From Escherichia phage LF82-1: 64,000 nt of DNA. Numbering within the stretch: position 1 is the first letter of the stretch; the number at the start of each line of letters is the position of its first letter. Under the pieces are notes generated by a model. It saw only the letters and a list, made by a program, of their open reading frames with translations, did no database searches and was not told the origin of the DNA. The translations under genes and the position numbers were made by a program. Below are positions 63,302 through 63,850 of the stretch, one piece after another. Location of the stretch: the sequence record PV648359. One strand, 5' to 3'.

Positions 63302-63850
63302 TTAACGAGCCCATTTGATGATTTCTGTAATCAAACCATTACGTTCGCTTGCATTAAATCCTATAACTTTGTTAGCACCATCATGATTAAGTAATTGATA
63401 CGTTTGGATTTTGTTATGAATTGCAAACTCTTCAAAATGTGAAATGACTGTATTAAAACCGAATGAAGACAAAGTAATAAGGTCGTCTTCAAAACTTTCA
63501 GTCATTTCGTTACGTGTTAAAATAATTGTGAACACATCATGGTTTTGGCAAAGACGAACATAATCCTGCTCATAAACATCAAGAACAGAGTCCGCATCTT
63601 GTCGAATACGTCCATAAACCCAGTTACTAATATATCCACGGTCTAACAGATAAATCTTAGTAGGGTCTAAATAATTCAACATCGTTTCGAAACAGCCAAC
63701 TTCATTTCTAGACTTAACATCGAAACGTCCATCAACTGTTCGTTTAGGGAAATCAATCTTTACATATCTTTCACTAATTTCCATTATGTCATTAATGAAA
63801 GTTGTTTTACCAGCATTATCCGGGCCATCTACTAAAATAATTTTAGCCAT
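63302..63850 (-). CDS. P-loop NTPase, nucleotide/nucleoside kinase-like
   Basis: Walker A GPDNAGKTT, Walker B-like IYLLDRG; 182 aa. Confidence 0.5.
   Translation of the reverse strand: MAKIILVDGPDNAGKTTFINDIMEISERYVKIDFPKRTVDGRFDVKSRNEVGCFETMLNYLDPTKIYLLDRGYISNWVYGRIRQDADSVLDVYEQDYVRLCQNHDVFTIILTRNEMTESFEDDLITLSSFGFNTVISHFEEFAIHNKIQTYQLLNHDGANKVIGFNASERNGLITEIIKWAR

Follow-up and report, generated by a model that had tools for sequence, protein, structure and literature searches.

Near the end of a 64,000-nucleotide (nt) stretch of Escherichia phage LF82-1 DNA (sequence record PV648359; "the window" below means this whole stretch), an open reading frame (ORF) of 182 amino acids (aa) encodes a P-loop protein with a thymidylate kinase (TMK) fold, the counterpart of RB69p045 (gp45) in phage RB69. 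The gene is tightly linked to genes for a 5-hydroxy-deoxycytidine monophosphate (5hodCMP) synthase and for arabinosyltransferase 1 (transferase 1), and we give about even odds to the reading that its product is an ATP-dependent kinase for modified deoxycytidine monophosphate (dCMP), with 5hodCMP and/or its arabinosylated form as substrate, and a fixed, co-transcribed part of the arabinosyl-5-hydroxycytosine module. Neither gene nor module is a discovery: this is the known RB69 gp45 in a known, already published module, which has been on record since 2018. The co-occurrence data, signature analysis, and gene fusions described here sharpen the question of the substrate without answering it. The features of the kinase gene are the following.

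63302..63850, minus strand: TMK-fold P-loop kinase-like gene, 182 aa, ortholog of RB69p045 (NP_861735.1), with an ATG start; it opens MAKIILVDGPDNAGKTT and later reads IYLLDRG
63800..63826, minus strand: P-loop (Walker A motif) GPDNAGKTT, aa 9-17
63635..63655, minus strand: beta-3 strand and DR motif IYLLDRG, aa 66-72
63476..63514, minus strand: LID-equivalent segment, aa 113-125, R113-N-E-M-T-E-S-F-E-D122-D123-L-I, acidic and not Arg-rich
63855..63860, minus strand: GAGGAA, Shine-Dalgarno-like, 4 nt 5' of the kinase ATG and within the 3' end of the upstream transferase gene

The ORF is identical at 180 of 182 residues (99%) to RB69p045, which has the same length; it is the same gene in another Mosigvirus isolate, with the same cluster content and no difference of substance. 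A preliminary description of the window had given the ORF correctly, as a 182-aa frame with GPDNAGKTT and IYLLDRG. Its assignment of the first motif to Walker A stands; the second, for which it used the term Walker B-like, is more aptly named the beta-3 strand with the DR motif typical of TMKs. This is no chance ORF, because 343 phage records hold a full-length homolog and protein homologs reach E = 5.8e-116 for the best match; the match to PHROG 761, a confident AlphaFold2 (AF2) model, and the ribosome-binding site upstream are further grounds for taking it as genuine.

The module has been characterized in RB69. Eight genes without T4 homologs between the polymerase and uvsX were recognized as a single module (Thomas et al. 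2018, PMC6024577), and the DNA of RB69 and of Acinetobacter phage DLP3 carries mono-, di-, or tri-arabinosylated 5-hydroxycytosine (5hoC) (Lee et al. 2026, NAR, PMC13326640). The latter study established that RB69 gp48, a homolog of thymidylate synthase (ThyA), is a flavin- and O2-dependent 5hodCMP synthase, and proposed and validated L143E/D169N/N177D as the signature of this activity. It also assigned the RB69 counterpart of the 299-aa gene upstream of the kinase as arabinosyltransferase 1, and drew a parallel between gp51, gp52:53, and gp55 and the UDP-arabinofuranose pathway of phage HY126 (Lee et al. 2026, PMC13326640). RB69p045 figures there as a putative "nucleotide kinase" in the list of the gp45-gp55 cluster, the text saying nothing more on the kinase, and homologs of it are named in the same type of cluster in DLP3 (DLP3_078) and Thanatos (TH1_064) (Lee et al. 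2026, PMC13326640). The arabinosylated 5hoC DNA of RB69-like, Dhakavirus, Acinetobacter, and other T4-like phages is the product of this pathway, of which the kinase gene is a part; the modification determines how sensitive the phages are to restriction, CRISPR, and type IV systems, and therefore bears on candidates for phage therapy.

Genomic linkage is the strongest new evidence on the kinase. With the kinase, transferase 1, and the ThyA homolog as tblastn queries against 50,697 phage records, the kinase is found in 343 records, transferase 1 in 348, and the ThyA homolog in 377. In most genera the counts for the three genes are the same or differ by one (kinase/transferase/synthase: Escherichia 176/176/176, Acinetobacter 57/57/57, Shigella 15/15/15, Enterobacter 9/9/9, Proteus 7/7/7, Yersinia 6/6/6, Klebsiella 25/26/26), the exception being Serratia with 9/14/9. 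The surplus of ThyA matches comes mainly from 22 Rhizobium phages, where the kinase is too divergent for the query; Rhizobium phage P10VF (Pootjesviridae) contains the synthase, the transferase, and a TMK-like protein that matches weakly (E = 1.4e-7). Six distant metagenomic contexts were inspected (L005, L006, L011, L013, L014, and L015), and in 6/6 the family member adjoins a homolog of ThyA and/or of transferase 1, often with overlapping reading frames. The ThyA homologs beside family members carry L143E, D169N, and N177D in 8/8 cases checked, and the one adjacent to the kinase in the window phage reads E143/N169/D177; the ThyA-type enzyme of phage M6, used as the 5-hydroxymethyluracil (hmU) control, is without this signature. 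In the reading that we favor, the kinase is part of a portable three-gene core of synthase, kinase, and first transferase.

The kinase gene takes different places within the module, yet it is never lost. RB69 and Thanatos have the order synthase, transferase, kinase; JS10 has phosphatase, kinase, synthase, transferase; and Marfa has phosphatase, kinase, U32, synthase, transferase. The kinase genes of JS10 (L002 5995-6531) and Marfa (L003 5995-6549) accordingly sit between the phosphatase and the synthase or the U32 gene. The kinases of Dhakavirus and Marfavirus share only about 38% identity with that of the window, compared with about 68% for the transferase and about 79% for the synthase, a pattern which suggests that the kinase gene may have been replaced or shuffled within the module. 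In the window itself, the TAA stop codon of the upstream transferase (63852-63854) ends 1 nt ahead of the kinase ATG, which indicates that the kinase gene is operonic with this neighbor, and in JS10, Thanatos, and metagenomic loci these gene pairs overlap by 4-8 nt. Reading frames that overlap or abut in this way indicate co-expression, and the kinase and transferase 1 are probably translationally coupled.

By fold and conserved residues, the product is a small nucleotide-kinase-like P-loop protein and not a bona fide member of the TMK, deoxynucleoside kinase (dNK), or AAA_33 families. Public records label it "nucleotide kinase" or "thymidylate kinase" (RefSeq, pharokka), and the sole match in curated libraries is to PHROG 761 ("thymidylate kinase", E = 5.7e-45). 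A Pfam search of the kinase gives nothing significant (the top match is AAA_14 at E = 0.04), the Pfam thymidylate kinase family PF02223 is unreported even at E<=10, and the NCBIfam dTMP kinase model TIGR00041 reaches 16.3 bits, far short of its cut-off of 83.25, and aligns with just the N-terminal 26 residues. PADLOC defense models have no meaningful match to the protein. An exhaustive HMMER family-profile search of 1.84 billion representative proteins returned only 45 clusters at E<=1e-10, a number that grew to 317 when the limit was E<=1e-3, and by these sequence comparisons the family is small, essentially viral, and only remotely TMK-like.

Its relationship to nucleotide kinases is clearer in structure. 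The AF2 model has a predicted local distance difference test (pLDDT) score of 88.3 and a predicted TM-score (pTM) of 0.85, with the lowest confidence in the LID equivalent (pLDDT 59 for residues 121-130). Foldseek places thymidylate kinases, YorR, and deoxycytidine/deoxyguanosine kinases (dCK) as the best matches in the PDB (E about 1e-5 to 1e-6, TM up to 0.65), and viral TMK/dNK models in BFVD also match. When a first family profile was compared with E. coli Tmk by hhalign, the P-loop alone aligned and a broader profile was needed; built from 44 diverse family members with 20-68% identity to the window ORF, this profile reaches YorR at 8.3e-10 and yeast TMK at 4.3e-9 by sequence (HMMER). The resemblance to small nucleotide or nucleoside kinases that had been noticed from the motifs is therefore borne out by structure and profile, and the family is kinase-like rather than an unrelated group of ATPases.

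Across the 44 members G9, D11, G14, K15, D70, R71, and D122 are invariant, and K36, S75, N76, Y79, R113, D123, and N133 nearly so. The active-site core of TMKs, where Mg-ATP and the acceptor phosphate are bound, consists of the P-loop Lys, an acidic third P-loop residue that contacts the 3'-OH of the acceptor deoxyribose, and the DR motif, which bridges Mg and phosphate. Conservation of the P-loop Lys, the P-loop acid, and the DR motif in the family argues for an active phosphotransferase that would act on a deoxynucleoside monophosphate, and because the P-loop acid contacts a free 3'-OH in TMKs, a mononucleotide rather than DNA is the more natural acceptor.

The likeness to TMK (EC 2.7.4.9) extends over the overall fold (Foldseek probability 1.0, TM 0.5-0.65), the P-loop GxDxxGK[ST]T with its acidic third residue, an FP[KE]R segment after beta-2, the hhhhDR motif followed by S..Y, and an FN motif after the LID. 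In the HMMER alignment S75-N76-x-x-Y79, which follows the DR motif, falls on the ...DRY/F.S..Y of the yeast and Aquifex enzymes. The kinase differs from TMKs in that it is shorter at 182 aa, shares only 12-20% identity with them, and has G as the third residue of the DR motif in place of Y/H/F. Its model also has a beta-hairpin (aa 37-44) and a single predicted helix between beta-2 and beta-3 where TMKs have the two helices of the thymine pocket. A gap-free HMMER alignment to yeast TMK puts K46 and E50 on the positions of the stacking Phe and, a helical turn further on, of the Arg that contacts thymine O4, an alignment that is tentative in this remodeled region of hairpin and short helix; if it holds, E50 in place of the Arg would suit the N4 amino group of cytosine.

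The closest PDB sequence by profile is YorR from the Bacillus subtilis SPbeta prophage (PDB 2axp and 3kb2; E = 8.3e-10 over positions 4-118), a 173-aa protein that is also among the top Foldseek matches and shares EGPD..K.T, FE...., and DRF.YSNLVY. To our knowledge YorR is functionally uncharacterized and has no cluster of ThyA and glycosyltransferase genes around it.

In the pathway that we favor, the neighboring ThyA homolog would convert dCMP to 5-hydroxy-dCMP, and the kinase would bind 5hodCMP and/or its arabinosylated form and transfer the gamma-phosphate of ATP to produce the diphosphate. The nucleoside diphosphate kinase of the host would then convert the diphosphate to the triphosphate, which the phage polymerase would incorporate, and the adjacent glycosyltransferases would attach the sugars. 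The identity of the gene, its fold class, the conservation of catalytic-type residues, and the close genomic ties to the 5hodCMP synthase and transferase 1 are shown by the data; that the kinase is catalytically active, that its acceptor is a mononucleotide, and which nucleotide this would be are steps that we infer.

Several observations weigh against this assignment. RB69 gp159, a T4 gp1-type deoxynucleoside monophosphate (dNMP) kinase, converts 5hodCMP to 5hodCDP, and expression of the synthase and gp159 alone in E. coli brings 5hodC into DNA (Lee et al. 2026, PMC13326640). Since gp159 already phosphorylates 5hodCMP and suffices for incorporation of 5hoC in E. coli, a second 5hodCMP kinase looks redundant, which leaves room for the three other readings of its role discussed below. 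Both kinase types are also found in P10VF, where a gp1-like dNMP kinase lies two genes upstream of the synthase. Compared with TMKs, the protein falls under the curated HMM cut-offs, it has N12 in place of the catalytic Arg of the type I P-loop, and it is without the Arg-rich LID of type II enzymes, having instead an acidic FxDDxI segment of low model confidence; in the LID equivalent (aa 112-128) R113 is the sole Arg and D122-D123 form a conserved acidic pair. Fusions of family members to a glycosylase-type HhH-GPD domain, described below, hint at a role closer to DNA. Gp159 is a functional analog, a phage kinase phosphorylating a modified dCMP, with no detectable sequence relationship between its type and the kinase family (the gp1-like P10VF_175 reaches E = 0.017 against the family HMM). 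The gp1 gene maps to another part of the genome and occurs in all T4-like phages; the kinase family is confined to 5hoC phages and is kept in every lineage that makes 5hoC, although a gp1-type kinase phosphorylates 5hodCMP. Knowing the role of the kinase could settle whether the first sugar is placed on the nucleotide or on DNA.

This last point leads to an alternative in which the kinase serves the first glycosylation, either by phosphorylating a 5-O-arabinosyl-dCMP too bulky for gp1-type and host kinases or as an obligatory partner of transferase 1. Single transferases supplied with UDP-arabinose (UDP-Ara) did not arabinosylate 5hoC-DNA, and the published experiments do not distinguish whether the first arabinose goes onto the mononucleotide or onto DNA (Lee et al. 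2026, PMC13326640). Kinase and transferase 1 co-occur as closely as kinase and synthase do. The kinase is usually the direct neighbor of transferase 1 and is probably translationally coupled to it, and with a gp1-type 5hodCMP kinase also present, a separate substrate becomes more attractive. The T4 paradigm, however, is glycosylation after replication, and the incorporation of 5hodC with only the synthase and gp159 means that 5hodCTP is itself a polymerase substrate; moreover, the kinase is parted from transferase 1 by the synthase in JS10 and by the synthase and the U32-like gene in Marfa. We regard such a role as unlikely on balance. One explicit version, in which transferase 1 glycosylates 5hodCMP before replication, the kinase makes the diphosphate, and the polymerase incorporates the glycosylated nucleotide, seems to us quite unlikely, but it would account for a good deal if true: a pre-replicative sugar would explain the retention of a second kinase, alongside the gp1-type enzyme, by all lineages of 5hoC phages, as well as the one-to-one tie between kinase and transferase 1 and the failure of transferases on their own to act on 5hoC DNA in vitro.

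An ordinary dTMP kinase that raises dTTP for an AT-rich genome, perhaps as the gp1-type kinase shifted toward 5hodCMP, would fit the name "thymidylate kinase" in RefSeq, pharokka, and PHROG 761, the top rank of TMKs in the structural comparison, and the presence of a P-loop acid and a DR motif. This too we hold to be rather improbable. The protein is far below the curated TMK thresholds (TIGR00041 16.3 against 83.25 bits, PF02223 unreported), it carries E50 at the position of the thymine-O4 Arg in the tentative alignment, and it has neither a type I nor a type II catalytic Arg. Nor would a housekeeping TMK be expected to track the D169N ThyA homolog and transferase 1 one to one across unrelated phage lineages while being absent from T4-type 5-hydroxymethylcytosine phages. 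Less probable still, to the point of being a distant prospect, is action at the level of DNA, where the protein might, for example, be a nucleobase kinase that phosphorylates 5hoC or an ATP-binding accessory in the repair or maintenance of 5hoC-DNA. P-loop nucleobase kinases have precedent in phage hypermodification, and about eight family members, encoded in D169N ThyA clusters of the same type, carry a fused HhH-GPD domain that is MBD4-like. The precedent is the 5-hmdU DNA kinase (5-HMUDK; PF18748; M6 gp54), which resembles the present case as a small phage P-loop kinase beside a ThyA-superfamily pyrimidine modifier in a hypermodification cluster. Yet in a Pfam search the kinase has no match to PF18748 (HMUDK_HMUD1), which M6 gp54 matches at 7.7e-18, and hhalign of the kinase family against M6 gp54 covers the N-terminal half only (positions 3-88, 85 columns, 24% identity, 82% probability). 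The kinase locus is also without the aGPT-Pplase/amino-acid:DNA transferase (AADT) partner of the 5-hmdU systems; the fused domain is of the repair-glycosylase (MBD4) kind, not aGPT-Pplase/AADT, and no such domain occurs in the RB69-like locus. The conserved P-loop Asp, the free 3'-OH contact of TMKs, points to a mononucleotide, and the end product is an O-glycoside, which needs a free 5-OH and not a phosphate ester. A kinase for modified dCMP remains the reading we prefer.

The fusions are found in about eight metagenomic family members of 314-357 aa with a C-terminal HhH-GPD domain (P0059, P0060, P0065, P0067, P0070, P0075, P0076, and P0125), two of whose loci are:

L005 10001-11074 (GCA_034680565.1, contig JAXOUH010003483.1): kinase-glycosylase fusion
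L006 127-1092: kinase-glycosylase fusion

They lie in D169N ThyA clusters, and the P0059 fusion directly adjoins a D169N ThyA homolog. In the AF2 model the best match of the fused domain is the mismatch (T/U/5hmU:G) glycosylase domain of MBD4 (TM 0.75-0.81 normalized to the target), with 27-28% identity, the GxGKY..DS and P.DKEL motifs, and the catalytic Asp kept. On this modeled likeness, the fusion more likely couples nucleotide supply to the repair of deaminated 5hoC (5hoU:G). A tblastn search with the fusion C-terminal domains found none in the window or in the RB69-like, JS10, and Marfa loci, and loci related to that of P0059 were sought in viral contigs without success. We considered the fusions as equivalents of the 5-HMUDK/AADT pair and rejected this, since there is no PF18748 match, the likeness to M6 gp54 is weak and limited to the N-terminal half, and the fused domain models as an MBD4-type repair glycosylase rather than an aGPT-Pplase/AADT transferase. 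The extra C-terminal domain of another, distant member, P0078, was likewise considered as MazG/dCTPase-like and set aside, there being no PDB or Pfam support and the contig being too short for context. Immediately after the fusion at L005, two genes from the D169N ThyA, lies a gene for an NADPH-dependent flavin mononucleotide (FMN) reductase (L005 11068-11613; FMN_red, E = 7.9e-12), which fits a possible supply of reduced flavin to the flavin-dependent 5hodCMP synthase; RB69-like clusters are without such a gene.

The surroundings of the kinase gene were followed beyond the window. Its last 3 kb match Escherichia phage LF82-2 and siblings at 100% identity, as against about 98% for PhAPEC2, moskry, and other RB69-like Mosigvirus phages, and the genes past its end were read in the identical phage LF82-2 (locus L001). 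The immediate neighbors in the window are:

62031..63203, minus strand: uvsX recombinase gene, 68% identical to T4 UvsX, downstream neighbor of the kinase
63852..64000, minus strand: C-terminal 49 codons of arabinosyltransferase 1, the RB69 gp46:47 ortholog, 299 aa when whole

In the direction of transcription the kinase is followed by uvsX, gp40, and the gp41 helicase. Upstream of it in LF82-2, all on the minus strand, are the 299-aa transferase (L001 10853-11752), which is 98.7% identical to RB69 ORF046c+047c, the 238-aa ThyA homolog (the 5hodCMP synthase, just past the window end), and a 79-aa ORF. Further upstream, again on the minus strand, come a peptidase-U32-like gene, a small HAD-type phosphatase, and a 561-aa nucleotidyltransferase plus kinase, and the far end of the module is formed by a SIS-domain arabinose-5-phosphate isomerase, followed by DNA polymerase gp43. 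RB69 has the same gene order, with RB69p045 in the kinase position between uvsX and transferase 1. Judged by its genes, the locus is an RB69-type arabinosyl-5-hydroxycytosine module, with a predicted content of kinase, arabinosyltransferase 1, 5hodCMP synthase, U32-like protein, phosphatase, bifunctional kinase/UDP-Ara pyrophosphorylase, and arabinose-5-phosphate isomerase, and the preliminary suggestion that this locus differs from T4 in its nucleotide-modification genes was thus correct. Transferase 1 is a single intact 299-aa ORF here and is cut in two in the RB69 reference record (L009 5598-6498, ORF046c/047c), a split that has been put down to sequencing error (Lee et al. 2026, PMC13326640).

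T4 has segA and the beta-glucosyltransferase gene (beta-gt) at this place, with gene 42 after them. BLASTP of the kinase, the 299-aa protein, and its 49-aa in-window C-terminus found no similarity to T4 beta-gt, segA, or gp42, and for the transferase and its 49-aa part there is no match to T4 beta-gt at E<=10; GT-B-type structural matches have been given for transferase 1 (Lee et al. 2026, PMC13326640), and the ThyA homolog is only 25% identical to T4 gp42. The partial frame at 63852..64000 had been described as unlike T4 beta-gt and the gp42 C-terminus, which agrees with its identity as the end of arabinosyltransferase 1, and reading past the window end shows the neighbor to be a glycosyltransferase that by sequence is no homolog of beta-gt. 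The kinase had also been placed in the uvsX-proximal slot of T4 beta-gt. It does lie directly upstream of uvsX, but the positional and functional analog of beta-gt is the adjacent transferase gene, and the kinase is an extra gene between transferase and uvsX.

The kinase ORF has a G+C content of 33.7%, against 37.7% for the whole window. A scan of 63000-64000 for sigma-70 promoters and terminators gave matches no more frequent than expected by chance. The intergenic region between kinase and uvsX (63204-63301, 98 nt) reads AAATGCTGTA on the minus strand and, about 11 nt on, TATATAAT; to the eye, and unscored, this arrangement resembles a T4 MotA-dependent middle promoter, here for uvsX.

Some module variants carry additional genes. 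A gene resembling T4 endonuclease IV (denB; a faint Pfam match) lies between the D169N ThyA and transferase 1 homologs at L011 6217-6915 and fits a possible module-encoded breakdown of cytosine-containing host DNA. On a short metagenomic contig, a radical SAM/SPASM gene (L015 2752-3681) follows the trio of ThyA(D169N), kinase, and Glyco_transf_4, and may be a sign that glycosylated 5hoC is elaborated further in a way not yet described. In RNA, ho5C/ho5U is made by the U32 proteins RlhA, TrhP, and UbiU/V, hydroxylases that depend on prephenate and not on O2. The "peptidase" of the LF82-2 cluster (L001 12747-13907, about 2.7 kb past the window end; ortholog of RB69 gp50) belongs to the U32 family (Pfam E = 7.3e-11) with a weak NCBIfam match to UbiU, and has been labeled a "sugar or heterocycle reductase" (Lee et al. 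2026, PMC13326640). In two related phage records (H182 and H186) a chorismate mutase is annotated beside the ThyA homolog. By analogy, the U32-like protein could provide an anaerobic route to 5-hydroxylation beside the O2-dependent synthase.

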